Positions 25,910 to 41,074 of a stretch of 64,000 nucleotides of DNA are shown in pieces. Both the position numbers and the translations under genes were made by a program. This DNA comes from Candidatus Poribacteria bacterium (lineage in GTDB: Bacteria; Poribacteria; WGA-4E; PCPOR2b). The stretch is taken from NCBI GenBank assembly GCA_965208675.1, contig OZ242351.1, forward strand, positions 3,552,001-3,616,000, in the 5' to 3' direction. Within the stretch, counting starts at the first letter, position 1, and the number at the start of each line of letters is the position of its first letter. A model generated the notes under the pieces. The model ran no database searches, was not told the origin of the DNA, and was given only the letters and a program-made list of their open reading frames with translations.

Positions 25910-25963
25910 AGATTTGTCCACCGCTCTAAACACCACCGAAACGGTTGGAAGGAAACCGATTCA

Positions 25964-27106
25964 ATGTATCGTCGATGGCTCTATGGACTTGCTGTCCTCA
26001 CTGCTGTGATGACGTTTATCCTGATTTGCATGGGCGGACTTGTGACGAGTACGGATTCAGGGCTGGCTGTCCCCGATTGGCCGACGACCTTTGGATACAA
26101 CATGTTTCTCTATCCGTTATCGAAAACGGTCAGCGGTTTTCTCTTCAGCATTGACTCAAACCTCCAAGCTAATTTGGATGACAGTGACCCTTCGGTAGAG
26201 TTGCGGATGGCGCTTGAAAAAAACGAGATTCCGGTGTCCGAGGATGTTATAATTTCAGTCGTCCAGCCAGGCAGCAGGTGGAAGCTAACAGATGACGAGA
26301 ACGGGCGCACCTATTCGCTGATTAAAACGGGGGATCGGCTCGATGTTTACGTTCACGGCATTCTGTACGAGCACAGCCATCGCTTGATCGGGTCGATCGT
26401 CGGACTGCTGACGATTGGGTTGATGGTATCACTCTTGGCGAAGGACGATCGGAATTGGATGAAATGGCTTGGATTTATTGCACTTGCCGCGGTGATTGCG
26501 CAGGGAGTGATGGGCGGCATGCGTGTCACAAACCTTAGCAGAATACTCGCTATCATACACGCCTGTTTTGCCCAAGCATTTTTCGCACTGACTGCAAGCC
26601 TCGCGTTATTTACCTCACGCGGATGGCTGGGGGCATCGGAGCAAATTGAAGCGGCAAATACTTCTCGCTTGAGAAAATTGAGCATCATCACGGTGTGTCT
26701 CATCTATGTCCAATTCATCTTCGGCGCCGTGTTGAGGCATACCGGGAATCGGCTGGACGCCCATCTGCTTTTCGCCGGTTTAGTAACTATTCACATATTT
26801 TTGCTCTTGAGGCGAATCTTGCTAGATTATCTGGAGAACCGGATTCTTGTTCGTCTAATTCTGCTATCGAGCGGCCTGCTCGCCGTACAATTGGTGTTGG
26901 GATTTGGGGCATTCGTCACCGAGTTCACAGCTCTCGGTAAAGGCGTGTCTCCTGTCGCCGGCGTAGCAATCACCACCGCCCATGTTGCGATTGGTGCTTT
27001 AATGATGGCCAGTTCCGTCCTGCTGGCTTTGAATGTGTTTCGTTTCACAATGGGTTCAGAACCTGTTGCGAATCGAGGGCTTGTTTCCGACGAGGTATCC
27101 GCATGA
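25964..27106 (+). CDS. ctaA: Heme A synthase (COX15/CtaA)
   Basis: GLAVPDWP, EHSHR, IHACFAQ, GAVLRH, TAHVA. Confidence 0.88.
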   Translation: MYRRWLYGLAVLTAVMTFILICMGGLVTSTDSGLAVPDWPTTFGYNMFLYPLSKTVSGFLFSIDSNLQANLDDSDPSVELRMALEKNEIPVSEDVIISVVQPGSRWKLTDDENGRTYSLIKTGDRLDVYVHGILYEHSHRLIGSIVGLLTIGLMVSLLAKDDRNWMKWLGFIALAAVIAQGVMGGMRVTNLSRILAIIHACFAQAFFALTASLALFTSRGWLGASEQIEAANTSRLRKLSIITVCLIYVQFIFGAVLRHTGNRLDAHLLFAGLVTIHIFLLLRRILLDYLENRILVRLILLSSGLLAVQLVLGFGAFVTEFTALGKGVSPVAGVAITTAHVAIGALMMASSVLLALNVFRFTMGSEPVANRGLVSDEVSA

Positions 27107-28005
27107 TGCCAATAACAAACACACTAGACATCGGCTTATCCCAGATGAGCCGCCGACTATCAATCTTTGTTGAGTTGACAAAGCCGCGGCTGGTTTCGAT
27201 GATACTGGTTACAACTTCAGCCGGCTTCTACCTCGCCTCTCCCCATCCGCTAAATTGGCTGCAGTTCATTCACGCCGTTATCGGCACGGGTTTATCGGCA
27301 GCGGGAGTATTAGCCCTGAATCAGTACCTTGAACGCGACTTAGATGCCCAAATGGTGCGGACATGCCACCGACCATTGCCGGATCGTCGGCTTCAACCGA
27401 CGACAGCGCTTTCGTTTGGAGTTTTGTTGACGGCTAGCGGGTTGCTCTACATGGCGTTTGCCGTAAACGCCTTGAGCGCACTAGTCACGTCAGCCATTGT
27501 TGTGACTTATCTGTTCGTCTATACCCCGCTGAAGCAGAAGACATCGCTCTGTACTGTGGTGGGCGCAGTCCCGGGTGCATTACCGCCTGTAATCGGTTGG
27601 GTTGCGGCACGGGGTACGCTCAATATTGAGGCGTGTGTGCTTTTCGCAATTCTGTTTCTCTGGCAACTGCCCCACTCGCTGTCGATTGCGTATATCTACC
27701 GCGATGAATACGCAAAGGCTGGATTCCGCTTGCTGCCGGTAATTCACCCGGACGGCAAGAGCACGGGAAGGCAGATTGTCAGCAACTGTCTAGGCCTTCT
27801 CTTTGCGGCGCTGCTGCCCACGTTAATCGGCATAGCGGGTATAGTCTATTTTTTCGCCGCACTGGCGTTGAGCATCGGCTTTCTCGGGTTCGGCATCAGC
27901 CTCTCAATTTCTCGATCGACAGCGGCAGCAAAACGGCTGTTGTACGCTTCATTGATATACTTGCCGCTTGTTTTTCTAGTGATGGCACTTGACAAGATGG
28001 CGTAA
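27103..28005 (+). CDS. ctaB: Protoheme IX farnesyltransferase (heme O synthase)
   Basis: LTKPR, NQYLERDLDAQMVRT..RPL, YTPLK, WQLPH. Confidence 0.95.
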   Translation: MMPITNTLDIGLSQMSRRLSIFVELTKPRLVSMILVTTSAGFYLASPHPLNWLQFIHAVIGTGLSAAGVLALNQYLERDLDAQMVRTCHRPLPDRRLQPTTALSFGVLLTASGLLYMAFAVNALSALVTSAIVVTYLFVYTPLKQKTSLCTVVGAVPGALPPVIGWVAARGTLNIEACVLFAILFLWQLPHSLSIAYIYRDEYAKAGFRLLPVIHPDGKSTGRQIVSNCLGLLFAALLPTLIGIAGIVYFFAALALSIGFLGFGISLSISRSTAAAKRLLYASLIYLPLVFLVMALDKMA

Positions 28006-28028
28006 CGGACTGGGAGAATAAAATTCGG

Positions 28029-28139
28029 ATGAACAACGACGAAAAGCGGCGGCGCAACCGACGTGTCGGCTGGTTCTTATTCGGAATATTCATCGTCTTG
28101 TTTTTTCTGGCAACGCTGCTCGCACTCTTTAAAAACTGA
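28029..28139 (+). CDS. Small single-TM protein (36 aa) in the oxidase operon
   Basis: MNNDEKRRRNRRVGWFLFGIFIVLFFLATLLALFKN; GGGAGA RBS; below the ORF-track cutoff. Confidence 0.65.
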   Translation: MNNDEKRRRNRRVGWFLFGIFIVLFFLATLLALFKN

Positions 28140-28229
28140 TGCATTACATCTTTTAGACGAGGTTTCCCAGCCGCTATTGTTCGGTAATGGGGCTTGTCTT
28201 CTTTAACTATGTTTTAAACAAAATCTTCA

Positions 28230-28835
28230 ATGAATGAATTAGAACACCCCTCATACGCTAGCGCCGAAGGCGAAAACAGACCGATAAGCAATGCGCGTTT
28301 AGCTGTACTGGTACTGTTGGGCGCCGAAATCATGTTTTTCGCCGGGCTGATTGGGACGTTTCTAGTGTTCCGCTTGGGCAGTACAACATGGCCTCCGCCG
28401 TCACAGGTAGACGTTCGCTTGCCCGTGGGTGTGACAGGACTGAACACAATCGTCCTGCTCTTGAGCGGATTTACAATGTTCAAGGCGCAGCAAGCTATTA
28501 GGCATGGCCTTCAGAATGCGCTTAGAAACAGGCTTTTCCTGACGGGGCTTCTTGGCGTAATCTTCCTCGCTGTACAGGGTTACGAATGGGTGCGCTTGGT
28601 GCATCACGGATTCACGCTTTCATCGGGAGTGTACGGCTCAATATTTTATGTCCTTATCGGTTGCCATGCGCTGCACGTACTAGTGGCAGTATTTTGGCTG
28701 TTAGCCGTTTTCATTGGGGCGACAGCCGGACGGTTTTCTGTTGATCGCCACGTTGGTGTTGAGGTCTGCGCTATTTACTGGGTGTTTGTTGTGTGCCTGT
28801 GGCCCGTTCTTTACGTACTTGTGTATCTAATCTGA
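28230..28835 (+). CDS. coxC: Cytochrome c oxidase subunit III-like protein
   Basis: EIMFF, NTIVLLLS, QGYEW, GCHALHV, YW. Confidence 0.88.
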   Translation: MNELEHPSYASAEGENRPISNARLAVLVLLGAEIMFFAGLIGTFLVFRLGSTTWPPPSQVDVRLPVGVTGLNTIVLLLSGFTMFKAQQAIRHGLQNALRNRLFLTGLLGVIFLAVQGYEWVRLVHHGFTLSSGVYGSIFYVLIGCHALHVLVAVFWLLAVFIGATAGRFSVDRHVGVEVCAIYWVFVVCLWPVLYVLVYLI

Positions 28836-28847
28836 CATGGGGTTTTA

Positions 28848-29102
28848 ATGATGCGTCGATACATTCTAATGTTATTCACAGCGCTGGCTATTGCGCTGGT
28901 TTTTCCAGCCATCGGCAACGCGTGCCCTTCATGTAAAACGATTGATGACCCAATTGTTCAAGGTTTTAAGTGGAGCATCTTATTCCTTATGGCGATGCCT
29001 TATATTGTTTCCGGTCTGATTGGTGGCAGTGTATTCTATATTTACAAACACACACATCGGGCCAATAATCATAAACCATCTTCAAATGTGAAAGGAGTGT
29101 GA
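28848..29102 (+). CDS. Small membrane protein with CxxC
   Basis: Signal peptide, ACPSC, one TM helix; a position typical of oxidase operons. Confidence 0.65.
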   Translation: MMRRYILMLFTALAIALVFPAIGNACPSCKTIDDPIVQGFKWSILFLMAMPYIVSGLIGGSVFYIYKHTHRANNHKPSSNVKGV

Positions 29103-29105
29103 AAA

Positions 29106-29750
29106 TTGGAAGACACTGCAACGCTCGATCATTCCGCAGATGTCTATGAACCGTCCCTCACGCCTGACAGTCTGGGAAAGTTGGGGATGTGGCTCTTTCT
29201 TATTAGCGATGCGATGTCGTTTGGCGCGTTGTTGGCTGCCTACGGCGCTATCCGTGCTGGTGCAGCGGAGTGGGCGCCCCCAGCCGAAATTCTCGGCATT
29301 GAACTCACAGCGGTTATGACCTTTCTGTTAATCTGTAGTAGTGTCACGATGGTCAAAGCGCTAGAATCAATCCAGAACGGCAACCAAAGGAGGATGTGTG
29401 CCTTCCTTGGTTTGACTATCCTAGGCGGCGTAATCTTCTTGGGACTACAAGCGTATGAATGGGCAGAACTAATCAAGCACGGGCTCACTCTCACCTCAAT
29501 CCCCCATCGCGGGTTGTCAGGTGCTGAGATTTCCGGCTCGGTGCTTTTTGGTCCGACCTTCTACACAATTACAGGTTTCCACGGTGCCCACGTTACCGGC
29601 GGCGTCATATACCTCATCGTTATCTTGATTCAGGGGATGCGGGGGACGTACACAGCCGAATATAACCACAAGGTCGAGATTTTGGGATTGTATTGGCACT
29701 TCGTTGACCTAATCTGGATAATGGTCTTTACCTTTGTCTATCTATTGTAA
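29106..29750 (+). CDS. coxC: Cytochrome c oxidase subunit III (second copy)
   Basis: GMWLFL, QAYEW, TGFHGAHV, GLYWHFVD. Confidence 0.9.
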   Translation: MEDTATLDHSADVYEPSLTPDSLGKLGMWLFLISDAMSFGALLAAYGAIRAGAAEWAPPAEILGIELTAVMTFLLICSSVTMVKALESIQNGNQRRMCAFLGLTILGGVIFLGLQAYEWAELIKHGLTLTSIPHRGLSGAEISGSVLFGPTFYTITGFHGAHVTGGVIYLIVILIQGMRGTYTAEYNHKVEILGLYWHFVDLIWIMVFTFVYLL

Positions 29751-29769
29751 ACTCTAATGGAGAATCGAG

Positions 29770-30102
29770 ATGGAACACGCTCATAAAGAACACCCGAGAT
29801 ACATAAGAATATTTGTGATTCTCATCATACTTACCGTCGCTGAAGTTGCTGTGGTCTACATGCCGTTTCCGACGATTGTGACTGCACTCCTGCTGATTGG
29901 CATGGCATGTTCTAAAGCAGCTTACGTTGCGCTCTATTTCATGCACTTGAAATTTGAGAAGAAAACCTTGACGGTCATTGCATTAACACCGTTTATCATC
30001 TGTGTTTTTCTCGTGTTTATGCTGCTTCCGGATTTGATGGAAGACGCTCGCCACGCAGGAATGGAAACATCCGCATCTCAAACTGTTGAATCCTCACATT
30101 GA
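29770..30102 (+). CDS. coxD: Cytochrome c oxidase subunit IV
   Basis: LTVAEV, KA...YFMHLKFE. Confidence 0.88.
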   Translation: MEHAHKEHPRYIRIFVILIILTVAEVAVVYMPFPTIVTALLLIGMACSKAAYVALYFMHLKFEKKTLTVIALTPFIICVFLVFMLLPDLMEDARHAGMETSASQTVESSH

Positions 30103-30134
30103 TGTGGATTTTTAGGTGTTCAACCTAATACCTG

Positions 30135-30255
30135 TGATATTACGCAATAAGTTCAAGAGTCCCCCTGATAAGGGGGATTTAGGGGGTTAAAAACACTGAA
30201 ATAGCGACTTTTTAAGTCCAATATTTCTTTTTTCTGTTCAATTTTCGCAAGTTCT
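30135..30255. repeat. 121-bp MITE-like repeat, copy 1
   Basis: Highly similar to 51207-51327; degenerate AGGACTTACGCA/TGCGTAAGTCCT ends; internal CCCCCTGATAAGGGGG hairpin. Confidence 0.8.
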
Positions 30256-30271
30256 GAATTAAATTACATTT

Positions 30272-30919
30272 ATGGAAACAGAAACACCGGATCAGAATCC
30301 CAAACCGAGGGAACGCCTGCGGCATGGCATGTTGTGGGGGGCGTTGATTGCCGTCATCGTCGGTATAGTTGGCGCCAATATTTGGTCACCGCATCATCAA
30401 GATTCAGGCGACGACACCGAACCAGATCTTGCCGTGCATCACCGGGTACCTGATTTCTCTTTGATTGATCAGCGAGGTACACCAATTGCCCCTTCGAATC
30501 TCCTCGGCAAGATTTGGGTTGCGGATTTTATCTTCACCCGCTGTGTTGCGGCTTGTCCGCTAATGACAGACAAAATGAAGAAACTTCAAGAAGAATTCGC
30601 GGAGTCAGGTGTTTACTTCGTCTCGGTTTCTGTCGATCCGGAATATGACACGCCGGACGTTCTCTTTCAGTACGCTAATCGCTTCGGCGTGGATGAAAGC
30701 ACATGGTTGTTTCTAACAGGAGAAAAGGAAACTATCTATCACCTCACACAAGAAGGCTTCGGCTTAGCCGTCGGGCAGCAAGAATCCGAAGTTCTTCATA
30801 GCGCTCGGTTTGTCTTGGTTGATCGCCGCGGACAAATACGCGGATTCTACGACAGCAATGAAGATGAGGCGCTTCAAAAGCTTCGCCGCGATATACCGCA
30901 ATTACTCATCGAATCGTGA
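30272..30919 (+). CDS. sco: SCO1/SenC copper chaperone
   Basis: FTRCVAACP (CxxxC), SVDPEYD, LHS. Confidence 0.93.
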   Translation: METETPDQNPKPRERLRHGMLWGALIAVIVGIVGANIWSPHHQDSGDDTEPDLAVHHRVPDFSLIDQRGTPIAPSNLLGKIWVADFIFTRCVAACPLMTDKMKKLQEEFAESGVYFVSVSVDPEYDTPDVLFQYANRFGVDESTWLFLTGEKETIYHLTQEGFGLAVGQQESEVLHSARFVLVDRRGQIRGFYDSNEDEALQKLRRDIPQLLIES

Positions 30920-31206
30920 ACCTTGATGCAGTACGACTCGGCGTTTCGCTGGCAGTTCTTATCATCAATCTGCCATTTGGATATTTTCGTGTTCGTCACA
31001 AGAGGTTCACCCGCCCTTGGGGGCGGTGTATCTACATCCCCATTCTTATTAACATAGTCCTCCGCCGCTTAATCCTGCACTGGGATTGGGGCGGGGCGCT
31101 CTTCCTCTTTTCAGCCGCGATTCTTGGACACATTTTAGGCGGACTCTGGGGTAGGCGCCAGCAGAAAAAGCGGGAAGCGGTGCCGGAATTAAACCTTGAG
31201 AGTTGA
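30916..31206 (+). CDS. Small hypothetical membrane protein
   Basis: GTGA overlap with sco; 3 hydrophobic segments; NLPFGYFR. Confidence 0.7.
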   Translation: MNLDAVRLGVSLAVLIINLPFGYFRVRHKRFTRPWGRCIYIPILINIVLRRLILHWDWGGALFLFSAAILGHILGGLWGRRQQKKREAVPELNLES

Positions 31207-31336: not shown

Positions 31337-31389
31337 TAAATCCGTTCGCTTGATTGATGGTTTTAACTGACAGTCAAGGAAAAGCAACG

Positions 31390-33318
31390 ATGTTCAAAAA
31401 AATCCACGTGCCTGTTGACAATTCGGATTATTCTGACGCGAGCGTCCATCTTGCTGTCGCGTTTGCCAAGAAATTCGCTTCGCAGCTTGTTGGCTCTCAT
31501 GTCTACGCAGCGAAGATGCACGACGTTCGCTTCAAACAGATGGAGTACACCCTGCCGGAGGAATATCAGGACGAAGTCGAACTCGAAAAACAGCGCCGCA
31601 TCCATGACACCTTGATTACGATGGGGCTTCAACTTATTTCGGATTCGTATCTTGATGTCATGCAGAAAATATGTTTGAAAGAGAATATCCCTTTTGAAGC
31701 AAAAATGCCGGAGGGCAAGCATTTCATCAAGATGGTGGAGGATATTCAATCTAGCGGCTACGATCTGGTTATTATGGGCGCTCTCGGTATGGGAGCCGTC
31801 AAAGACAGCCTGCTCGGCGGCGTGTGCGAACGGGTTGTCCGCCGAATCCAAACCGATGTACTCGTGGTCAGAAACATTCGGCCCGTCGAAGAGCAGCGCG
31901 GACATATTCTCGTAGGCATTGACGGCAGCCCTGAATCATTCGCCGGCTTGAAAACGGCGATTCAGATCGGTAAAGCATTTAATCGGCACGTCGAGGCGGT
32001 TGGTGTCTACGATCCATATCTCCATTATGTGGTATTTAATTCAGTCGTCAATGTGCTGACGGAACGCGCATCTAAAACCTTTCGATTCAAAGAGCAGGAG
32101 CAGTTACACGAGGAGGTAATCGACACTGGGCTCGCAAAGATTTATCAGTCCCATTTAGAGGTGGCGCGTACAATCGCGAAAGAAGACCACAACTACGACC
32201 TCAAGATTACGCTGCTTGACGGCAAAGCCTTTGAAAAAATCTTGCAATACACGCGTAAGACCCAACCGTGGCTGCTGGTGCTTGGTCGAATTGGCGTGCA
32301 CAGCGAATCCGACATGGACATTGGCAGCAACACCGAAAATCTACTGCGGCTCGCCCCTTGCAACGTCCTGTTATCGAGCCAGCGATATGTCCCCAAGGTT
32401 GATGTCAAGGCGGAAGAGACTGTCGTTTGGACGCAGGAAGCCTTAGACCGTATGGAGAAAGCGCCGCCGCTAATCAAAGGGATTGCCAGGACGGCAGTCC
32501 ACCGCTTTGCGCTTGAGCGCGGGCACTCGGTCATTACCGAAAGCGTCATTGAGGGCGCTATGGAGACGTTTATGCCGGGGCGCTCTGCAGAACGGATGAC
32601 GCGAGTCGCCAAAGAGGTCGCGGCGCAGACGGTTCTTGAGGCAAATGCTATCCAGACATACATCTGTGAAGATTGCGGCTATGCCGCCCGTGAACAGCAA
32701 CCTGTGAAATGTCCGGTCTGCGGTGTCGGCAGCGACCGCTTCCAAATGGTTGATAAAGACTCGCTGCAGAAAATTGCGGCTCAAGAGGGCGGCGTCAGCG
32801 AAGAACGTACCTTTGACGGCGTCCGCCTCCAGTGGTCGGATCAGGCAAAGAAGGCGTTGCGGAATGTGCCGCGCGGTTATATGCGGCGTAATGTCAAGGC
32901 GCGAATCGAAAAATCGGCGCGGACGCAGAAAATCGACACTATCACGAATGAATTTGCCATGCTGATTGTCAACGAGAGCATCGATGACGCTTCCGCTATC
33001 CGAGAAGACGCGCCTGAACTAAGGGCTGTGTCTCAATCGCGCGGCAACGCCGACACCGCCCAAGGGGAGGCATTTGAAAGTCGGTTTGAATGGACAACAG
33101 ACGCCCGTGAGCGATTGAATCTCGTACCCGCAGGATTTATGAGGAACATCACGCAGTCTCGCGTCGAGCAGCGGGCACAGGAAGCCGACCTTGAAACAAT
33201 CAACCTCGATTTTGCGGCACAGGTAATTGAAGACGGACGGAGTCTGGCTAACGAGGTGCTTGGCAGCTATTATCAACAGGATGAACAGGCTAGCGAGGTA
33301 GGCGCACAGGCAAAATGA
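31390..33318 (+). CDS. Tandem USP-domain protein with a rubredoxin-like module and three PCP_red-like domains
   Basis: Two USP domains (KKIHVPVDNS..DLVIMGALG; ILVGIDGS..LVLGRIG); CEDC...CPVC; three W[TS]xxA..L..[VA]P repeats. Confidence 0.85.
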   Translation: MFKKIHVPVDNSDYSDASVHLAVAFAKKFASQLVGSHVYAAKMHDVRFKQMEYTLPEEYQDEVELEKQRRIHDTLITMGLQLISDSYLDVMQKICLKENIPFEAKMPEGKHFIKMVEDIQSSGYDLVIMGALGMGAVKDSLLGGVCERVVRRIQTDVLVVRNIRPVEEQRGHILVGIDGSPESFAGLKTAIQIGKAFNRHVEAVGVYDPYLHYVVFNSVVNVLTERASKTFRFKEQEQLHEEVIDTGLAKIYQSHLEVARTIAKEDHNYDLKITLLDGKAFEKILQYTRKTQPWLLVLGRIGVHSESDMDIGSNTENLLRLAPCNVLLSSQRYVPKVDVKAEETVVWTQEALDRMEKAPPLIKGIARTAVHRFALERGHSVITESVIEGAMETFMPGRSAERMTRVAKEVAAQTVLEANAIQTYICEDCGYAAREQQPVKCPVCGVGSDRFQMVDKDSLQKIAAQEGGVSEERTFDGVRLQWSDQAKKALRNVPRGYMRRNVKARIEKSARTQKIDTITNEFAMLIVNESIDDASAIREDAPELRAVSQSRGNADTAQGEAFESRFEWTTDARERLNLVPAGFMRNITQSRVEQRAQEADLETINLDFAAQVIEDGRSLANEVLGSYYQQDEQASEVGAQAK

Positions 33319-33482
33319 CTTAATTGGCTCAGAACGATCAAATGAGCGGAAAGTGAAGGGATGGTTTACTGCGAATCCCAACGCATTTGAAAACTTCGTC
33401 AATCCAAATACAAAAAACTGTCGCGATTACTATCTTGTCTCTAATTTGGCGGATTGTTTAGGAATTTGGGAGGCTTTATCCC

Positions 33483-34766
33483 ATGGGCTACGCGCGGAAA
33501 AAACAGTGGACAATTGTAATACTTTCCGTAATTTTGCTTTCGGCTGTGGGCGTTGCCGCAGCGGAAAACTGGCCGCATTGGCGCGGACCGCGCAACGATG
33601 GCACCAGTCTCGAAACCGGCCTCCCAATCCAATGGAGTAGCACTGAAAACGTCCTGTGGCGGCTTCCGCTTCCGGGCGCCGCCGGTGCAACACCGGTCGT
33701 GTGGGATGACCGCATCTTCCTGACTTCGGCAGAGAGCAGCGATCTGGTACTGTTGTGCATCGGAACAGATGGCGAGTTACTCTGGAAACGCACCTTGGGA
33801 ACCGGCAATCGCAACGTCCACGGCGGAGAGGGAAACGCCGCCTCCCCTTCCCCATCCACCGACGGCAAACATGTCTGGGCATTCATCAGCACTGGAGACT
33901 TAGCCTGTTATGACTTCGACGGCAACGAGGTCTGGAAGACTAATCTGGAAGACCGGTACGGCGGCTTCAATCTCTACTTCGTCATGGCATCCACTCCGCT
34001 CCTTGACGGTGACCGGCTTTATCTCCAGTTAATTCACAGCAATGCATGGCTCGTGCTGGCATTGGACAAATCGACCGGCCGTGAGATTTGGAAACACAAT
34101 CGTAAAAGCGATGCATACGCGGAGTGCGAACATTCTTACGCCTCCCCTTCGCTCTATCGAGACGATAAACGTGAATTCTTGCTCGTTCACGGTGCGGACT
34201 ACATCACCGCCCACCATCTCACGGACGGAAGCGAGATTTGGCGCTGCGGAAACCTTAATCCGAAGAATAGCTACAACACCTCCCTGCGGTTGGTTGCCTC
34301 CCCTGTAGCCGTTCCCGGTCTCGTCGTCGTTCCTTCCGCGAAGAATGGGCCGGTCATCGGCCTGCGTCCCGGCGGCAAGGGAGATATAACCGGCTCAATG
34401 CGATGGCAGCACTGGCGGCGAGCGGATGGCACGCCGGATGTTCCGTCTCCACTCATCCATGAAGGACTTGTCTATCTATGCCGGGAAAACGGCGATCTAA
34501 TTTGTTTGGACGCCGAAACCGGTAAGCAAGTGTACAAAGAGCGGACGCACCGTCACAGGCACCGTGCATCCCCCGTTTCCGGTGGCGGCAACATCTACTT
34601 GACTTCGAGGGACGGACGTGTAACCGTTGTAAAATCTGGGCGGAATTTTGAGATTCTTGCCTCCAACGACATTGAAGAGACGATCTCCGCGTCCCCCGTC
34701 ATCTCGAACGGCAAGTTCTATCTACGGAGCTACAAAGCGCTGTATGCCATCGGTGTTGCGGAGTGA
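33483..34766 (+). CDS. Secreted PQQ-binding-like beta-propeller protein
   Basis: Signal peptide, ENWPHWRGP, repeated SP..G..W blades. Confidence 0.88.
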   Translation: MGYARKKQWTIVILSVILLSAVGVAAAENWPHWRGPRNDGTSLETGLPIQWSSTENVLWRLPLPGAAGATPVVWDDRIFLTSAESSDLVLLCIGTDGELLWKRTLGTGNRNVHGGEGNAASPSPSTDGKHVWAFISTGDLACYDFDGNEVWKTNLEDRYGGFNLYFVMASTPLLDGDRLYLQLIHSNAWLVLALDKSTGREIWKHNRKSDAYAECEHSYASPSLYRDDKREFLLVHGADYITAHHLTDGSEIWRCGNLNPKNSYNTSLRLVASPVAVPGLVVVPSAKNGPVIGLRPGGKGDITGSMRWQHWRRADGTPDVPSPLIHEGLVYLCRENGDLICLDAETGKQVYKERTHRHRHRASPVSGGGNIYLTSRDGRVTVVKSGRNFEILASNDIEETISASPVISNGKFYLRSYKALYAIGVAE

Positions 34767-34805
34767 ATTGCCAAGCACGGAGAATTGTGAAGTCGGGTGC
34801 CGCGC

Positions 34806-35723
34806 ATGAAAACCTACAAAGACCTACCCTCCGACGGCGGTTCTGATATCGTCGGGCAGGTGACTCAACAGGTCAACCGCCTGCAGAAACGGTTTGCATC
34901 GGTGCGTCATACCGTCGCTATCATGAGCGGAAAGGGCGGGGTAGGCAAGAGTTTGTTGACGGCAAATCTCGCTTCAGCGCTTAGATTGCGCGGATACGAT
35001 GTTGGGATAGTTGACGCTGATATCAATGGCCCGTCAATCGCCAAAATGACGGGAGTGCGGTCGGCAAAGATTAATTACGACGCTGCTGGTGTGAAACCCG
35101 CAGTGAGTCCATCGGGCGTCAAGGTGATGTCGATGGATCTGTTCCTCAAGAACGACGAATCCCCCGTGCTTTGGGAAGCCCAAACGCAGAAGGACGCTTA
35201 CACTTGGCGCGGGACGATGGAGGTGACGGCACTCCGCGAATTCCTATCTGATACCGAATGGGGCGCGCTTGACTATCTACTTATCGATCTGCCGCCCGGT
35301 TCGGACCGGCTGCCGAATCTCGCCGATTTGCTGCCGACGCTCGGCGGCGCCATCGTGGTCACCATTCCTTCCGGCGTCTCGCAGCTTGTGGTAAAGAAAT
35401 CGTTGACGATGGCAAAGGCAGCACTCAACATACCGGTGATTGGTATCGTCGAAAACATGAGCGCATACATCTGCGCCAGTTGCGGCAAGACGGAAGGCTT
35501 GTTCCCGACTGGGAATACGGAGGAGACGGCGCATCAATTCAACATTCCGTTACTCCCCAAAATTCCGTTCGATCCACGTCTTTCAATCGCCGCTGACGAC
35601 GGTGAGAACTTTTTAGAACAAAACGCCGAAACACCAGCCGCAAAGGCGATAATCGAAGTTGGCAATAAAATCGAGACGTTTTTTGAGAACAACACTGCAA
35701 GTGTGCCACGGAGCGACTCATGA
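34806..35723 (+). CDS. mrp: Mrp/NBP35 (ApbC) Fe-S cluster carrier ATPase
   Basis: SGKGGVGKS, DADINGPS, DLPPG, VENMS..CASC. Confidence 0.92.
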   Translation: MKTYKDLPSDGGSDIVGQVTQQVNRLQKRFASVRHTVAIMSGKGGVGKSLLTANLASALRLRGYDVGIVDADINGPSIAKMTGVRSAKINYDAAGVKPAVSPSGVKVMSMDLFLKNDESPVLWEAQTQKDAYTWRGTMEVTALREFLSDTEWGALDYLLIDLPPGSDRLPNLADLLPTLGGAIVVTIPSGVSQLVVKKSLTMAKAALNIPVIGIVENMSAYICASCGKTEGLFPTGNTEETAHQFNIPLLPKIPFDPRLSIAADDGENFLEQNAETPAAKAIIEVGNKIETFFENNTASVPRSDS

Positions 35724-36235
35724 AATTTCTATGCCTCGAATGCAACACGGCTATGCAGTTTAAGGAAGCCGCAAAGCCCGATCAAGGTTCATTAACGGCA
35801 ATTTTCGAGTGTCCGGACTGTTTTGCCGAGTTTGCAATGCACATGAACCCGTGGGAAACCCAAATGCTGAAGTCCCTCAACGTTCAGCTCGGCGGCAAAA
35901 GCGAAGCGGCGCAGCCGATGCAGATGGTACGCTCCTTTTTAAGCGAGCAAGGCGGCGCAACCGCCGCAACAGATCAGAACACGCAGACAACAACCATGAC
36001 GCCAGAGTCGGAAGGCGGCAAGTGTCCGTTTACATCAGTTGTCGCAGAAGCATTTCAAGAACCGGATTCGTCCGGACCGGTATGGACGCCGGAAGCCTTA
36101 GCGCGTTTGGAGCGTGTGCCTAGCTTCGTCCGTCCGATGGCAAAGACTAGCATTGAAGAGTTCGCACGTGAAAATGGGCACACCGAAATCACCACCGACA
36201 TCATGGATTCTGCACGCGGCAGTTTTGGGATGTAG
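35720..36235 (+). CDS. Zn-finger protein with a C-terminal PCP_red-like domain
   Basis: CLEC...CPDC, NPWETQM, GKCPF, VWTPEALARLERVPSFVR; ATGA overlap with mrp. Confidence 0.8.
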   Translation: MKFLCLECNTAMQFKEAAKPDQGSLTAIFECPDCFAEFAMHMNPWETQMLKSLNVQLGGKSEAAQPMQMVRSFLSEQGGATAATDQNTQTTTMTPESEGGKCPFTSVVAEAFQEPDSSGPVWTPEALARLERVPSFVRPMAKTSIEEFARENGHTEITTDIMDSARGSFGM

Positions 36236-36381
36236 GAGTATGTCGCAGCAATTACGGAAGAAATCTTCTTACACAAGTATTGGCAGACCAGTGTGAGGCG
36301 TTAATGTAGAACATTTCATTCTGCAGATTGTATTTACTTTTCTCGGCGGGACCGCTTCTATGTTTCACGGTACACTTATCC

Positions 36382-36879
36382 ATGCGCCAATTCGTCGAAC
36401 TTGTCATTCGTTGGATACACCTAATCGCCGCAATCGTCTGGTTCGGCAGCGTCTTTTTTTCAGTCAGCATCGCTACACCGGTATTGAGGAAGCATTTCCA
36501 AATCGTTGAAAGTGTCCGGCATACCGCCGAGATTCTGGAGCGCTTACGGCATATTATCCGTTTCACGATTCACGTGCTTCTAATCACCGGTGCGATGAAC
36601 GTGTTCATCGTTGGATTGAACACGCAGATGCGCTTTTCTCAGGACTACGGCTATTTTGTTGTTTTTATCGCGAAACTCGCTTTTGTTGGATTGATGACGC
36701 TGTTCCATAGCCTGCATATCGCCGTTTTCAACCGAAGATTGGAATCCGCGGCGGCAAACCCAGATTTTGACGCTTCAGAGGTCTCCAAACTCCAAAAGCG
36801 GGTGGACCTATTTGGAATTTTTACGATACTCACCGGGCTTGTTGTCTTTGCGTTATCGTTGCGTTTGAGAGTGGATTGA
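36382..36879 (+). CDS. CopD/DUF4149-like 4-TM membrane protein
   Basis: WIHLIAAIVWFGS, LITG, AKL...H pattern. Confidence 0.7.
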   Translation: MRQFVELVIRWIHLIAAIVWFGSVFFSVSIATPVLRKHFQIVESVRHTAEILERLRHIIRFTIHVLLITGAMNVFIVGLNTQMRFSQDYGYFVVFIAKLAFVGLMTLFHSLHIAVFNRRLESAAANPDFDASEVSKLQKRVDLFGIFTILTGLVVFALSLRLRVD

Positions 36880-36916
36880 TAAACTAAGTGAAGCGTGTCA
36901 TTAGGGAAGTAAATAC

Positions 36917-38218
36917 ATGGAAACGAAAATCCAAGCCGTCTCATGGAATATCACACGGTTATGCAATCTCAAATGCACACACTGTTATCTCCCCGCCGGC
37001 TTTGTGGATACGAACGAGTTTCCAAACGGGTATTATCGAGACGCGGAACTGACGCAGCCCGAGTGTTTCCGCGTGATTGATGAGATTGCCGAGGTCAATC
37101 CCAACATCCTCCTGATACTCACGGGCGGCGAACCGTTGCTGCGCCCTGACATTTTGAAAATCTCGGATTATGCGGCTCAAACCGGATTCTTGGTAGTGAT
37201 GGGTACGAACGGCGTCCTGCTGAACGATGAAACGGTTCAGCGGATGAGCGATCACGGTGTTGCCGGCGCAGGCATCAGTTTGGATGCTGTGGACGCGGTT
37301 AATCACGACAAGTTCCGGGGGATGGAGGGCGCTTGGGAAGGCACGATGAACGGGGTCGAAGCCCTCAAGCGGGCAAACCTCGATTTCCTTGTGCAAACCT
37401 CTGTGACACAGTGGAATTACGATGAGATTCCGCAAATCGTTGATTTTGCCTATGAACTCGGCGCGAAAGTGTTCAACCTCTATTTCCTTGTGAGAACCGG
37501 CAGGGGGAAAACGGTGATGGATATCACACCGGCTCAATATGAACAGATGCTCTCGACGCTTTTTGAGATACAGTCGAAATACCGCGGCAAGATGTTGGTT
37601 GCAGCAAAATGCGCGCCGCACTACAAACGGGTCATTTATGAACAGCAATCAGATTCGCCCTTCCTGCAAGCCTATCCGAGCGGTACGTGTCCCTGCGGCA
37701 TCTATTACTGCCGGATCACGCCGGAAGGCGATTTGACACCGTGCCCCTACATGCCGGTGAGCGTCGGCAACCTGAAGACGGATAGTTTCCAGACGCTCTG
37801 GAACCAGTCGAAAGTCTTTCGCGAACTGCGAAATCGGGAACTGTTGGAAGGCAAGTGCGGCGCCTGCGAATTTCGAGACGTTTGCGGTGGTTGCCGCGCC
37901 CGCGCCTATGCCCAAACCGGTAACTATCTCGCTGAAGATGCGTCCTGCGAATACCAACCCGGACAGGTTGGCGGTCAAAACGTCCGGTTCGAAAAGACTA
38001 CCCCCTTTGCGGCCGAAACCGATTACGAGTTACAGTGGACGGATGCCGCACAGAAAAGATTGCAGCGTGTGCCCTCCTTTGCACGCGGGATGGTTACCAA
38101 AAGCGTCGAGAATTACGCCCGCGAACACGGTTGCCATGAAATTACACCGGAAATCATGAAAGCTGTCAAGAATCGATTTGACAAAACAGGTATCCCGTCG
38201 TTTAGACCTCGGCCGTAA
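36917..38218 (+). CDS. Radical SAM/SPASM protein (AhbC/AhbD/NirJ-like) with a C-terminal PCP_red-like domain
   Basis: WNITRLCNLKCTHCY, TGGEPL, CAPHY, PCPY, GKCGACEFRDVCGGCRARA, QWTDAAQKRLQRVPSFAR. Confidence 0.88.
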   Translation: METKIQAVSWNITRLCNLKCTHCYLPAGFVDTNEFPNGYYRDAELTQPECFRVIDEIAEVNPNILLILTGGEPLLRPDILKISDYAAQTGFLVVMGTNGVLLNDETVQRMSDHGVAGAGISLDAVDAVNHDKFRGMEGAWEGTMNGVEALKRANLDFLVQTSVTQWNYDEIPQIVDFAYELGAKVFNLYFLVRTGRGKTVMDITPAQYEQMLSTLFEIQSKYRGKMLVAAKCAPHYKRVIYEQQSDSPFLQAYPSGTCPCGIYYCRITPEGDLTPCPYMPVSVGNLKTDSFQTLWNQSKVFRELRNRELLEGKCGACEFRDVCGGCRARAYAQTGNYLAEDASCEYQPGQVGGQNVRFEKTTPFAAETDYELQWTDAAQKRLQRVPSFARGMVTKSVENYAREHGCHEITPEIMKAVKNRFDKTGIPSFRPRP

Positions 38219-38279
38219 AACACGGTTAACGAAGGTAAATTTCGCGCATGACGCCCGCACACTTTGAGGAGAAAAAACT

Positions 38280-38693
38280 ATGAATAGTGAAAACCGAGTT
38301 GAAGACCGGCTATCCGCCGTTGAAGACCGATTAAACCGCTTGGAAGATTTGCTGGTCGGTATCAGTCAAAAACTGGATCAGAAACCCCAGCCGACTGCGA
38401 TTGATGAGGAGAAAGGCGAAGCGTTCAAAGAGTGGGTGACCGATTACGTTTCAATGCGCTTGCAGCAGCTTGTGCCCGAAACATGCGATCATCCGGATGC
38501 CACAAATTCGCACGAAGGTCCGTTCTTGGATAACACCTCAGTCCGCTGCACTGAGGAAGTTGTTCACCGCGTCAAACGCATCCCGATTCCATTTGTTCGG
38601 GAGATGGTGGTTCAACGTGTGGCGGAAAATGCCCGCCGTGCAGAGGTTGATGTGGTCGACGTGGAATTCTTTGAGAGTGCGGCGACCTTTTGA
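38280..38693 (+). CDS. Small coiled-coil protein with a degenerate PCP_red-like domain
   Basis: GAGGAG RBS; coiled-coil N-terminus; PETCDH; CTEEVVHRVKRIPIPFVR. Confidence 0.7.
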   Translation: MNSENRVEDRLSAVEDRLNRLEDLLVGISQKLDQKPQPTAIDEEKGEAFKEWVTDYVSMRLQQLVPETCDHPDATNSHEGPFLDNTSVRCTEEVVHRVKRIPIPFVREMVVQRVAENARRAEVDVVDVEFFESAATF

Positions 38694-39169
38694 CAGTGCA
38701 AAGCCACGGAGGAGTTTCCTCTGCCGCATTTCCACTGGGAGGATTTTTTAACGACTCCGCTCTGAACCAAGATTCAAAAGTCTTCAATCTAAAAATGGAT
38801 TGGGTGTTTAATCTTTTCTCAGAGTATCTTGAGAACGATTTCAAGAAGCGGCTAGGCATTCCCAAGCCGACAGTGGACCAGCTTTGGGACGCCTTCAAAG
38901 TCATGTTCCCGGCGACTTCGGCGCGACTCCTGGTGCAAGAGCCGGTTGGGAACACGGTCCGATTCAAACCGCTCGCCTTTTATTATGCGGACGAAATGGG
39001 ACCGCTGATTGAAGATGCGATGGGCTATATCAAGCAAAATTTCGGCGGGGGCAAATTCAAAATCAATTTCTACCAAGGGATGCAGTTCATTGCAACAATC
39101 AACTTTAAGCCCGAAGGCCCCGAAATTTGGCGCGATTTGCCGGAACTTGATGGGGCGGGGGTATCATGA
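38690..39169 (+). CDS. Hypothetical protein
   Basis: Overlaps the neighbours at both ends; GGGKFKINFY..TINFK. Confidence 0.65.
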   Translation: MTVQSHGGVSSAAFPLGGFFNDSALNQDSKVFNLKMDWVFNLFSEYLENDFKKRLGIPKPTVDQLWDAFKVMFPATSARLLVQEPVGNTVRFKPLAFYYADEMGPLIEDAMGYIKQNFGGGKFKINFYQGMQFIATINFKPEGPEIWRDLPELDGAGVS

Positions 39170-39588
39170 CACTTCAGCAGACCGTTACGGTATGCCCCGC
39201 GTGCAACAGCAAAAACGTGGAAGCCGTCGACCAAAATTCGTCGTTCTGCCTCGATTGCGATTGGGACAATTTACCGTTCGTCTCGAAAAGAACTGACGCA
39301 CTGATTTCTGCACTGCGGCACGGCGGTCCGGAGGCGCGGCGGGAAGCGGCGCAGACGCTAATCAATATCGGCGATGCGAACCGGCACGTCGCAACGCCCG
39401 ACGACCTCAATCCCCTGCTCGAAGCCCTTGATGATACAGATGACGATGTCCGCTATTTTGCTGCCGTGGCGCTGGGAAAGCTTCGGGATACGCGTGCACT
39501 GGCAAGGCTTGAGCGCATCGTGCATAACGACCCCTCTGGACTCGTGCGCGAAGGCGCCAAAAGCGCAATCGAATGGATTGAAGATTGA
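39166..39588 (+). CDS. Zn-ribbon plus HEAT-repeat protein
   Basis: CPAC...CLDC; DDVRYFAAVALGKL HEAT repeats. Confidence 0.8.
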   Translation: MTLQQTVTVCPACNSKNVEAVDQNSSFCLDCDWDNLPFVSKRTDALISALRHGGPEARREAAQTLINIGDANRHVATPDDLNPLLEALDDTDDDVRYFAAVALGKLRDTRALARLERIVHNDPSGLVREGAKSAIEWIED

Positions 39589-39648: not shown

Positions 39649-40068
39649 GTGATTGCCATTTCTAACCTACCCATGATAAATGCCGCGCTCAACTCAATTA
39701 GCGCGGCTCTGCTGACTGCCGGATATTTGATGGTTCGGAGACGCAGGATTGAAGCCCATAGAAAGTGCATGATTGCGGCTTTCGCGGTCTCCGCGCTATT
39801 TCTTACCAGTTATCTCGTCTACCACTACCACGCCGGATCCAAGAATTTTACCCTGTACGGCTGGATTCGCCCGGTTTACTTTACGATTCTCATCTCCCAT
39901 ATTATCCTCGCCGCGCTTATCCTCCCGCTCGCCTTAAGAACCCTCTACCTTGCCTGGCGCAAACAGTTTGCTAAACACCGCCGTATCGCGCGTCTGACGC
40001 TACCGTTGTGGCTATATGTTTCTGTCACCGGTGTAATCATCTATTTCATGCTATACCATCTCCAATGA
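39649..40068 (+). CDS. DUF420 (CtaM-like) oxidase assembly membrane protein
   Basis: NAALN, HRKCM, FLTSYLVYH, ISHIIL, WLYVSVTGV. Confidence 0.88.
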   Translation: MIAISNLPMINAALNSISAALLTAGYLMVRRRRIEAHRKCMIAAFAVSALFLTSYLVYHYHAGSKNFTLYGWIRPVYFTILISHIILAALILPLALRTLYLAWRKQFAKHRRIARLTLPLWLYVSVTGVIIYFMLYHLQ

Positions 40069-40318: not shown

Positions 40319-41074
40319 ATGCGTCCCCAGAGTTCAACGCAGACAGAAAAAAGAGCACAATCCCCGGATACTTTAGACCTATCTGAAATTGGTGCATCCA
40401 AAGATGGCGTACCTCAAGTCAGTGAACGGCGGTTGTTTGTGCAACTTCAGGTGTTCGATGGGTGTGTTCAACCGCAAGAACTGGTTGCAGCTTTAGAAGG
40501 CAGCGGTCTGGAGTGTGTCCTGTATCAAGATGTGCACGATTCGTCCGGCGTGGGGCTGCTCTATATGACGGAAAACCCTAACGATCTGGTGACCGAACTC
40601 GGGATCCTACTAAGGCGGGGTCCGTTTGCATCGTTGCGTCGAAAACCTGAATTTACCATGATTGGCAGGACATATTCTTCCGGACGCGAACCAAATTTAG
40701 AAGAATGGCTGCTCCGCAAGCCGCGCCGGAACATGCTGAACCCAGAATTTTCATGGGCGATGTGGTATCCGCTCCGACGGAAACCCGAGTTTTATCTGCT
40801 TCCAAGATCGGATCAGGGCAAGATTCTAGGCGAACACGCCATGATTGGCCGAGCCTACGCACAAGCGGGACATGCGCAGGATATCCGTCTGGCGTGTTTC
40901 GGACTCGATCCGCATGATAATGAGTTTGTGATTGGATTAGTAGGACCAGAGCTGTACCCGCTTTCTCGGCTTGTGCAAGACATGAGGAAAACTCAGCAAA
41001 CCGCCAAATACATCGACTCGCTTGGGCCATTTTTTGTGGGCAAAGTCTGCTGGCAAAAACCGTTGGCGTTGTGA
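40319..41074 (+). CDS. Chlorite dismutase / coproheme decarboxylase (ChdC/HemQ) family heme protein
   Basis: WYPLRRKPEFY, proximal His in GEHAMIG, FGLD..DNEF, LVQDMR, GPFFVG. Confidence 0.8.
   Translation: MRPQSSTQTEKRAQSPDTLDLSEIGASKDGVPQVSERRLFVQLQVFDGCVQPQELVAALEGSGLECVLYQDVHDSSGVGLLYMTENPNDLVTELGILLRRGPFASLRRKPEFTMIGRTYSSGREPNLEEWLLRKPRRNMLNPEFSWAMWYPLRRKPEFYLLPRSDQGKILGEHAMIGRAYAQAGHAQDIRLACFGLDPHDNEFVIGLVGPELYPLSRLVQDMRKTQQTAKYIDSLGPFFVGKVCWQKPLAL

Follow-up and report, generated by a model that had tools for sequence, protein, structure and literature searches.

A PCP_red-domain gene module beside an aa3 oxidase operon in Candidatus Poribacteria: a multi-phylum system with a possible role in oxygen-independent haem synthesis

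We analyzed a 64,000-nucleotide stretch of the genome of a Candidatus Poribacteria bacterium that is a sponge symbiont (assembly GCA_965208675.1, contig OZ242351.1, positions 3,552,001 to 3,616,000 of the forward strand), which we call the window and to which coordinates refer unless another locus is named. Directly downstream of an aa3 oxidase operon, the window carries a cluster of genes that share a small domain, PCP_red (Pfam PF08369), also present in the BchB/ChlB subunit of DPOR. An initial annotation, made from the sequence alone, had reported one motif that occurs six times in four neighboring genes, and PF08369 matches at each of these positions. We find that the cluster represents, in Poribacteria, a real but uncharacterized module that several phyla share. 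The genes and features of the locus are as follows, with the cluster's neighbors given last (aa, amino acids).

31354..33318, + strand: USP-USP-PCP_red-rubredoxin-like-PCP_red-PCP_red protein (USP_PCP), 654 aa, domains by Pfam
32428-32556, 32833-32952 and 33091-33213, + strand: PCP_red copies of USP_PCP, from the six-frame genome scan
~32659-32742, + strand: Cys4 rubredoxin-like knuckle of USP_PCP
33483..34766, + strand: PQQ/BamB-type beta-propeller, 427 aa (PF13360, 93 bits)
34797..35723, + strand: divergent paralog of the Mrp/ApbC-type P-loop Fe-S carrier, 308 aa (PF10609, 249.8 bits)
35720..36235, + strand: Zn-ribbon/G-x-C-P-F motif/PCP_red protein (Zn_PCP), 171 aa (PF08369, 68.6 bits)
36023-36031, + strand: C-P-F motif of Zn_PCP
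36083-36217, + strand: PCP_red domain of Zn_PCP
36328..36879, + strand: CopD/DUF4149/HemJ-clan membrane protein, 183 aa (PF05425, 32.9 bits)
36917..38218, + strand: AhbD/NirJ2-like radical SAM/SPASM enzyme with a C-terminal PCP_red domain (rSAM_PCP), 433 aa (TIGR04545, 331.4 bits)
38036-38170, + strand: PCP_red domain of rSAM_PCP
38280..38693, + strand: coiled-coil protein (cc_PCP) ending in a divergent PCP_red-like domain (38553-38681), 137 aa
38795..39169, + strand: small conserved protein without a family, ~124 aa from the conserved Met (open reading frame listed from 38690)
39166..39588, + strand: Zn-ribbon + HEAT (PBS-lyase-type) repeat protein (ZnHEAT), 140 aa (PF13646, 56.3 bits)
39649..40068, + strand: DUF420 membrane protein (PF04238, 155.3 bits)
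40319..41074, + strand: divergent ChdC/Cld-family protein (PF06778, 62.4 bits)
23352..31206, + strand: CoxII, CoxI, CtaA, CtaB, CoxIII, 84-aa protein, second CoxIII, CoxIV, SCO1 and 96-aa membrane protein, by Pfam

Most gene calls of the initial annotation hold when compared to Pfam, namely two Usp domains with RUBY_RBDX, the propeller, Mrp, HEAT, Chlor_dismutase and DUF420. Its CopD-like call is borderline, as the PF05425 match reaches 32.9 bits against a cut-off of 32.1. The oxidase genes upstream of the cluster are of the haem-copper type, not bd-like, according to Pfam. Within the cluster, the stop codon of the Mrp gene overlaps the start codon of the Zn_PCP gene (ATGA).

A six-frame scan of the whole 4,892,038-base genome with PF08369 gives exactly six matches, all in the cluster, starting at positions 32428, 32833, 33091, 36083, 38036 and 38553; 6/6 genomic copies are therefore located within 6.3 kb. 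At the level of whole proteins, USP_PCP scores 96.1 bits (three stretches summed), Zn_PCP 68.6 and rSAM_PCP 57.4. When the copies are considered individually in the six-frame scan, five score 34.6-71.1 bits, and so exceed the gathering cut-off of 32.5 bits, but the copy in cc_PCP does not (20.8-22.5 bits, E-value 4e-4 to 7e-4), so that the profile supports five of the six copies that had been proposed. The sixth copy has Cys in place of the leading Trp, and its comparison with the Zn_PCP family using hhalign gives an E-value of 0.0013 and a probability of 18%; blastp matches of cc_PCP to other PCP_red representatives have E-values down to 1.9e-9. It is probably a divergent PCP_red member. All six segments share the motif W-T-x-x-A-x-x-R-L-x-x-(V/I)-P-x-F, and the copies align to the first one at 25-45% identity.

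For structural searches of the PCP_red fold, one copy was used, that of Zn_PCP. In an AlphaFold2 model of this protein, PCP_red is a three-helix domain with a predicted local distance difference test (pLDDT) score of ~95. Model residues 117-171 resemble 2kru (Z 8.6, root-mean-square deviation 1.8, 55 residues aligned), and the domain also resembles residues 479-528 of 2ynm_D (Z 6.1, deviation 1.0 Å, 50 aligned) and 2l09 (Z 6.1). The conserved residues of PCP_red are W, A, L, P, F, R and E, and neither the aligned copies nor the Zn_PCP alignment contain a conserved His, Cys or Met that could ligate iron.

Five cluster copies are thus homologous to the PCP_red domain of DPOR BchB/ChlB (2ynm_D 479-528; isolated domains 2kru and 2l09), with the same three-helix fold in the case of the Zn_PCP model. 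However, unlike in BchB/ChlB, PCP_red in the cluster is fused to Usp, Zn-ribbon, radical SAM and coiled-coil parts, and often occurs in tandem. The initial annotation saw no chlorophyll genes, and we likewise find no BchB-sized frame at any PF08369 match of the genome. Instead, these matches all lie in frames of 141-654 aa that contain other domains and that lack a nitrogenase-like body, and the BchB equivalog models match with only their last 60-90 positions (48.8-53.5 bits, versus cut-offs of 490-509). In BchB itself, PCP_red corresponds to residues 469-522 (3aek numbering). The trans helix that caps protochlorophyllide is formed by residues 398-420 (PMC12022308, in excerpt), which is outside of PCP_red, and PCP_red is therefore not the known substrate lid. 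Among the 50 structural matches listed, 2ynm, a complex with the L protein, is the sole BchB/ChlB entry with PCP_red. This situation fits a domain that is ordered in the complex, although such a list is no proof of absence elsewhere. The available excerpts of PMC7317204, PMC13474568, PMC13297055 and the preprint 10.1101/2025.02.17.634645 contain nothing on the C-terminal domain of BchB.

The cluster's enzyme, rSAM_PCP, is by its sequence an AhbD-like radical SAM enzyme of the haem type, and the haem type agrees with what the initial annotation had supposed. Its best NCBIfam families are AhbD (TIGR04545, 331.4 bits) and NirJ2 (TIGR04055, 307.7 bits), and families of peptide-modifying SPASM enzymes score much lower, e.g., PqqE with 123.8 bits. 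The AhbD match spans the entire catalytic part (residues 8-348), and rSAM_PCP is like AhbD and NirJ2 in having a CX3CX2C motif (CNLKCTHC near the N-terminus), a SPASM region and a CX2CX5CX2CX17C motif. The last of these is exactly the auxiliary-cluster motif of AhbD (PMC10114771, in excerpt). Across 18 sequences of several lineages, neither cysteine motif varies, including the auxiliary cysteines C314, C317, C323, C326 and C344. In contrast to AhbD, rSAM_PCP has an additional C-terminal PCP_red domain, of which relatives have up to three copies, and is accompanied by partners that have not been described for AhbD, namely USP-PCP_red, CopD-like and Mrp/Zn_PCP proteins. The genome has no second AhbD-like gene (the runner-up reaches 47.6 bits). 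Solved sequences include neither AhbD nor NirJ, and the nearest relatives there are PqqE (E-value 5e-21) and SkfB. The AlphaFold2 model of rSAM_PCP (pLDDT 79.7) places PCP_red on a low-confidence linker, and is therefore uninformative as to how this domain packs.

To put this enzyme in context, we considered the haem genes. The genome contains one ferrochelatase and one CgoX/HemY-type oxidase, 2 kb apart, as well as one ChdC-family gene. There is no HemF, and no HemN above cut-off, in this genome or in five Nitrospirales genomes, and a 250-aa ChdC-type protein is present in each of the latter. Both the poribacterial and the Nitrospirales lineages therefore seem to use the coproporphyrin haem pathway. 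It has been proposed that an AhbD-like enzyme "might be responsible" for completing haem synthesis anaerobically in this pathway (PMC10114771), and AhbD requires an acceptor for the remaining electron (PMC10114771; PMC7242693; both in excerpt). The ChdC-like protein of the window is, judging from profile scores, a member of the superfamily only: PF06778 matches with just positions 88-188 of its 189 (62.4 bits), and HemQ equivalogs score 43-45 bits, versus cut-offs of 235-253.

The Mrp protein of the cluster matches PF10609 with 249.8 bits (cut-off 27.1). An alignment of 19 sequences from two phyla, from which the row of locus L007 is excluded because of an in-frame stop, shows no variation in the Walker A sequence GKGGVGKS or in the CxxC pair (C226, C229). 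The protein is thus like Mrp/ApbC/NBP35 carriers in its deviant Walker A and CxxC, but is a divergent paralog that is always paired with a Zn-ribbon/PCP_red protein. It scores below the equivalog cut-offs of ApbC (176.5 versus 348 bits) and MrpORP (254.7 versus 450 bits, with a match to only positions 2-251 of 365). Since the genome encodes a second, more canonical Mrp (346.5 bits, versus 244.3 for the cluster copy), the cluster Mrp is a dedicated paralog. The in-frame stop in L007 (G022:C1:2421381-2422289) is a single TAA in the Mrp orthologue of genome G022, where the rest of the module seems intact; it may be a sequencing error or indicate a recent pseudogene.

In the AlphaFold2 model of Zn_PCP, the three-helix PCP_red domain is preceded by a Zn ribbon (residues 1-45) and a disordered linker (54-102). 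The ribbon, with four Cys residues, resembles that of NrdR (Z 5.2-5.4). Residues C5, C8, C31, C34 and C102-P103-F104 are invariant in 19/19 sequences from Poribacteria and Nitrospirales, and the Gly-x-Cys-Pro-Phe motif, to which the initial annotation had drawn attention as a CPF motif, is invariant in the same sequences. The Cys-Pro-Phe motif is located in the flexible linker (pLDDT 31-50) and is duplicated in P0149. The classical haem regulatory motif is Cys-Pro, and Irr has Gly-Cys-Pro-Trp (PMC11442138, in excerpt). Having a conserved Cys-Pro in a flexible region, as is expected of this motif, Zn_PCP may bind haem.

We also predicted a complex of an Mrp dimer and the whole Zn_PCP protein, using a 19-row alignment for each and three controls. 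The score is 0.53 (runs 0.51-0.55), versus 0.01 for the best of the controls. Of 80 solved complexes, 58 attained the pass mark of this procedure, as did 2 of 110 mismatched pairs, and passes with scores at 0.60 or under comprise 7 of the 80 solved complexes and both mismatches. The runs show a contact agreement of at least 56% and a partner pLDDT of at least 62, and no interface was reported. Because gene order provides a strong prior, we regard this score as modest support for the prediction that Mrp and Zn_PCP bind each other.

The CopD-like protein scores far below the CopD equivalog (35.8 versus 195 bits) and HemJ (TIGR00701, 18.3 bits, cut-off 138), and its Nitrospira orthologue matches DUF4149. 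Residue H31, in its first transmembrane helix, is invariant in 11 sequences from two phyla; we take the His at this position to be a haem ligand in HemJ. USP_PCP matches Usp (PF00582) with 119.3 bits in two stretches and RUBY_RBDX with 28.6 bits, and its second Usp domain has a G-2x-G-9x-G-S stretch, presumably the Usp motif. The coiled-coil protein, cc_PCP, is 64-85% identical across three poribacterial families. ZnHEAT matches PF13646 (56.3 bits) and HEAT_PBS (28.5 bits), and follows the gene of the 124-aa protein in 7/7 poribacterial loci that cover it.

The 124-aa protein has no Pfam or NCBIfam match. It is 76-83% identical across poribacterial families, i.e., more than most of its neighbors, and tblastn matches start at query residues 23-36 in 6/7 poribacterial loci. 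Homologues occur in 5/5 Nitrospirales genomes (E-values 1e-10 to 1e-14), but elsewhere in the genome. As they are situated between malate dehydrogenase-like and VWA-domain genes, we rejected this protein as a cross-phylum core component. A C-terminal stretch, K-I-x-(V/I)-N-F-Y ... T-I-N-F-K, is shared in loci L105-L107.

We then studied the distribution of the module within Poribacteria. PCP_red is present in 152 of 176 poribacterial genomes, nearly all with 5-6 matches. By family, the counts are 27/28 (f1), 11/11 (f2), 112/112 (f4) and 0/7 (f3), with one match among the 17 genomes of the remaining families. Word-index protein searches returned 64 and 903 matches, all of which are poribacterial orthologues. 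In 12 loci from three families, the module consists of two blocks. Block A has the order (cox...SCO1, 96-aa gene), USP_PCP, (propeller), Mrp, Zn_PCP, and block B has the order CopD-like, rSAM_PCP, cc_PCP, small unknown, ZnHEAT. Both are kept even where they are megabases apart (genomes G151 and G167) or separated by 11 kb (G110). Mrp adjoins Zn_PCP in 10/10 poribacterial loci that have the latter, and the CopD-like gene adjoins rSAM_PCP in 9/9. The 96-aa membrane gene is upstream of USP_PCP in 5 of the 8 loci with USP_PCP, and SCO1 and cox genes are also present in 4 of these 5. The propeller is found between USP_PCP and Mrp in loci L008, L009, L011, L013 and L016, but was rejected as a core component because it is absent from 3/8 USP_PCP loci (L007, L015 and L018).

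Genomes without PCP_red allow us to ask which genes are lost together. Our sample comprised 12 such genomes (G029 of family f1, seven of f3, one of f5 and three of f8) and two positive controls. These genomes are kin rather than independent, and the counts are therefore given without a statistic; the absences correspond to at least two separate events (f3 and G029). An intact orthologue of the cluster's Mrp was found in 0/12 PCP_red-less genomes, being missing or pseudogenized, and a CopD-like orthologue was also found in 0/12. By contrast, the housekeeping Mrp (35-43% identity) is present in 12/12. The G029 locus is decayed: USP_PCP (residues 8-56), Mrp (4-136, with stops) and rSAM_PCP (1-229) are reduced to fragments, and there is no remnant of Zn_PCP, the CopD-like protein, cc_PCP, the small unknown protein or ZnHEAT. 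Yet its cox operon, which encodes an orthologous aa3 oxidase, is intact, as are CtaB, DUF420 and the ChdC-like gene. This pattern shows joint retention or loss of the PCP_red proteins, the Mrp paralog and the CopD-like protein, on which neither the aa3 oxidase nor DUF420 nor the ChdC-like gene depends.

DUF420, which we take to be CtaM, an aa3 oxidase assembly factor of Firmicutes, and the haem a genes CtaA and CtaB share the module's neighborhood, and DUF420 is also found near a PCP_red gene in N. moscoviensis. However, DUF420, CtaB and CtaA differ from the module in that they are not lost along with it; in G029, two are intact and CtaA is in two pieces. DUF420 and the ChdC-like gene follow block B in families f1 and f2 only. 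The ChdC-like gene was rejected as part of the module, since it is present in 7/7 PCP_red-less f3 genomes and intact in G029. Some details of G029 are of separate interest: CtaA (L108, G029:C10:33363-34277) matches in two pieces, query residues 2-71 and 106-380, and may be frameshifted, and the 5.5 kb that separate CoxIV from the 96-aa gene gave no match to SCO1.

The module extends beyond Poribacteria. When a library of 1.84 billion proteins is searched with a profile built from the six copies, 1,783 representative clusters match (E-value up to 0.001), and the best 150 representatives have 2-6 copies each. Fusion partners in the top 116 multi-copy representatives are Usp (40), RUBY_RBDX (18), SPASM (6), Radical_SAM (5) and Haem_oxygenas_2 (1). 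Carriers that are named include Nitrospinota, Myxococcota, Candidatus Anammoxibacter and Deltaproteobacteria, and their annotation goes no further than "universal stress protein" or "PCP reductase family protein". Full-length relatives of USP_PCP (at 35-54% identity), rSAM_PCP and Zn_PCP are among the representatives. Our literature search found no paper that describes the module and, based on titles and the beginnings of abstracts, none that addresses the role of PCP_red; the available excerpt of PMC5095920 contains nothing relevant to the module.

A scan with non-poribacterial relatives of Zn_PCP identified 80 loci, almost all in Nitrospirales and including Nitrospira moscoviensis NSP M-1. 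An Mrp orthologue that is 41-45% identical to that of the window is directly upstream of Zn_PCP in 76 of these loci, and the other 4 have less than 210 bp of upstream sequence on the contig. In five Nitrospirales genomes, there are 12-13 PCP_red domains each, distributed over five proteins: Zn_PCP (2 copies), a 330-aa protein (4), rSAM_PCP (1), a 700-aa USP_PCP (3) and a 166-180-aa protein (2). USP_PCP, rSAM_PCP and a CopD/DUF4149-type gene are consecutive in 3/3 Nitrospirales loci. The initial annotation had regarded its proposal as dependent on the genes being conserved together, and this is what we observe in the poribacterial and Nitrospirales loci and in the joint losses. As a side observation, a 336-aa protein of N. 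moscoviensis (L101, G176:C1:344113-344811), ~19 kb downstream of the Mrp-Zn_PCP pair, consists of four PCP_red copies and little else.

A link to the adjacent oxidases had also been proposed. In the window, the module is directly downstream of the aa3 operon. In 4/5 Nitrospirales genomes, the small gene with two PCP_red copies is 1.3-1.4 kb from a bd-like (CydA-partial) oxidase gene, and in the fifth the distance is 6.9 kb. The gene order in N. moscoviensis is HEAT ... O-methyltransferase, DUF420, the gene with two PCP_red copies, a 357-aa unknown protein and the bd-like oxidase, followed by DUF3047, two FGE-sulfatase genes and a second bd-like oxidase. Small PCP_red proteins, HEAT proteins and DUF420 thus recur beside two unrelated types of terminal oxidase. 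The proposed link is upheld to this extent, but not as an obligatory one, given that G029 keeps its oxidase without the module.

Further observations concern the oxidase loci and their surroundings. The N. moscoviensis bd-like oxidase locus (L102, 3826-9769) includes two FGE-sulfatase (formylglycine-generating-enzyme-like) genes, DUF3047 and a family-less 357-aa protein. The window has two CoxIII-family genes (28230-29750) of 201 and 214 aa that are ~32% identical according to tblastn cross-matches. Between them is the 84-aa membrane protein, which has a CxxC pair, and the four other poribacterial loci with coverage of the stretch (L008, L009, L016 and L108) have the same arrangement. Upstream of an ABC transporter and the cox genes, a 576-aa protein (18702-20432) has two cytochrome c domains and an ethylbenzene-dehydrogenase-type (EB_dh) haem-binding domain.

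Our preferred interpretation, in which we place somewhat less than even confidence, is that the cluster is an accessory module for oxygen-independent synthesis of haem b and its hand-off near terminal oxidases, with a dedicated Mrp paralog and with PCP_red as a shared docking domain. It is based on the observed domain homology, gene set, conservation and joint loss, along with the AhbD-type motifs and the haem-pathway background, from which we infer the substrate, the direction of hand-off and the binding partner of PCP_red. Coprohaem decarboxylation without oxygen is the most likely function of the predicted haem-type radical SAM chemistry. In organisms with the coproporphyrin route, rSAM_PCP would convert coprohaem into haem b without oxygen or peroxide or, alternatively, would act on the side chains of an iron tetrapyrrole in a closely related reaction. 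The USP-rubredoxin protein might gate rSAM_PCP by nucleotide sensing, or might supply or accept electrons. The dedicated Mrp paralog and its obligate partner with the Zn ribbon and Cys-Pro motif would load or repair the Fe-S clusters of rSAM_PCP. The CopD/HemJ-clan membrane protein would carry the product to the terminal oxidases in the membrane, a task in which the small PCP_red, HEAT and unknown proteins might participate in Poribacteria. The three-helix PCP_red domain would be the common docking module that joins these parts.

It is important to consider the observations that weigh against this interpretation. The AhbD match of rSAM_PCP is below the equivalog cut-off (331.4 versus 500 bits) and almost tied with NirJ2, which leaves room for a different substrate. 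Among 176 poribacterial genomes, 161 have a ChdC-family gene, and an AhbD-type enzyme would therefore be redundant unless it operates under different conditions. The intact aa3 operon beside the decayed module in G029 means that this oxidase can do without the module. In family f3, which lacks the module, there is also a haem-copper oxidase, albeit with a different CoxI (49-51% identity), and together these cases indicate that haem-copper oxidases do not require the module. DUF420 and the ChdC-like gene, which the initial annotation had listed as following the cluster, fall outside the co-lost set. The haem-motif reading of Zn_PCP depends on a short motif. The complex prediction, being weak, made with the whole of Zn_PCP and without an interface, is silent on whether PCP_red is the contact. 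Finally, neighborhoods in Nitrospirales do not all suggest haem or oxidases. The USP-rSAM-CopD trio of N. moscoviensis adjoins a B12-radical SAM gene, UbiE and a PAS response regulator, which disfavors a strict oxidase role, and in 21-26 of the 80 loci the Mrp-Zn_PCP pair ends a sulfate-assimilation operon with sulfite reductase, CysH, CysD and CysNC, and not a haem or oxidase operon. The first gene of this Nitrospira operon (L075 1918-8914 and 25 other loci) encodes a sulfite reductase fused to TusA and HEPN-like parts; the operon also has a family-3 glycosyltransferase-like gene, and a family-less 270-aa protein is at its end with Mrp-Zn_PCP.

The sulfur context just described would fit a system centered on Mrp, as the initial annotation had suggested, in which PCP_red marks clients for docking onto the Mrp dimer in its ATP-bound state, much as that of BchB would dock onto BchL. 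In this case, the main job would be to provide the radical SAM enzyme and further clients with Fe-S clusters, with haem being incidental. We consider this explanation unlikely on balance, but it accounts for the constant pairing of Mrp and Zn_PCP (10/10 poribacterial and 76/80 Nitrospirales loci), their overlapping codons in the window and the loss of the Mrp paralog jointly with PCP_red genes. The complex prediction (0.53 versus 0.01) gives it weak support, and 2ynm_D, as the sole BchB/ChlB entry showing PCP_red among the structural matches listed, is also compatible with it. However, only Zn_PCP consistently adjoins Mrp. The block with USP_PCP, rSAM_PCP and the CopD-like gene is separate from Mrp, at a distance of megabases in G151 and G167 and of ~135 kb in N. 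moscoviensis, and the Nitrospirales proteins that consist of PCP_red only are beside bd-like oxidases, far from Mrp. Moreover, since no interface was returned, the Zn ribbon could be the contact with Mrp instead of PCP_red, and contact of the BchB domain with BchL is putative. Of the docking claim, the part that is borne out is the conserved Mrp-Zn_PCP pair, with a weak predicted complex, and PCP_red is a candidate for the contact. A different possibility is that PCP_red itself handles tetrapyrroles, as a lid over substrate or product or as a hand-off module on enzymes and carriers. This idea is attractive in that PCP_red is fused to two unrelated classes of tetrapyrrole enzyme (DPOR BchB and the AhbD-like enzyme), that partners in the 116 representatives include radical SAM (5), SPASM (6) and Haem_oxygenas_2 (1), that tandem arrays of 2-6 copies would suit a relay and that haem-related genes are nearby. 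Nonetheless, it is distinctly unlikely, as the protochlorophyllide cover of BchB is helix 398-420 rather than PCP_red (469-522), PCP_red has no conserved His, Cys or Met, and the commonest partner is Usp (40/116), which is not a tetrapyrrole enzyme.

The frequency of Usp, together with RUBY_RBDX as the second most common partner (18/116), would fit a role of the USP-rubredoxin protein as a stress or redox sensor, which would sense nucleotides or redox state and use PCP_red to switch enzymes or oxidase biogenesis. The radical SAM enzyme would then be one regulated client among several. The G-2x-G-9x-G-S stretch of the second Usp domain and the PAS response regulator two genes downstream of the N. 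moscoviensis trio are in line with this role. But Pfam and NCBIfam reveal no DNA-binding or signaling output domain in the module. In addition, the protein is strictly inherited along with an enzyme, a membrane protein and an Fe-S carrier, as would suit a biosynthetic unit more than a regulator alone, and we consider a sensor quite improbable. Lastly, SPASM enzymes often act on peptides, the best solved relatives of rSAM_PCP are PqqE (5e-21) and SkfB, and small conserved genes are downstream of the enzyme, all of which could signify a system that makes ribosomally synthesized and post-translationally modified peptides, with a small neighbor as the substrate and PCP_red as a recognition element. 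We view this explanation as very improbable: rSAM_PCP scores far higher with the tetrapyrrole clade (AhbD 331.4 and NirJ2 307.7 bits, PqqE 123.8) and has the exact AhbD motif, and the small proteins are not beside the enzyme in Nitrospirales. Moreover, their conservation of 64-85% extends from end to end, in contrast to that of leader-core peptides.

A more far-reaching reading would be that PCP_red is a general docking tag for SIMIBI-class P-loop ATPases. It would have been re-used from BchB for an ATP-gated Mrp machine that loads Fe-S clusters or electrons into an oxygen-independent haem synthase, whose haem goes to unrelated oxidases. We regard this more ambitious proposal as rather unlikely. 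If it were true, the module would represent an unseen step of respiratory-enzyme biogenesis that is common to Poribacteria, Nitrospirota, Nitrospinota and others. If the preferred interpretation, an accessory module for oxygen-independent haem b synthesis, is right, it would become testable how bacteria with the coproporphyrin pathway complete the synthesis of haem when neither oxygen nor peroxide is used, which protein serves AhbD-type enzymes as electron partner and what role the widespread PCP_red domain has outside of chlorophyll synthesis. Carriers of PCP_red include globally important nitrite oxidizers (Nitrospira and Nitrospinota) and dominant sponge symbionts, and Nitrospira moscoviensis, as a cultured carrier, offers an experimental route.

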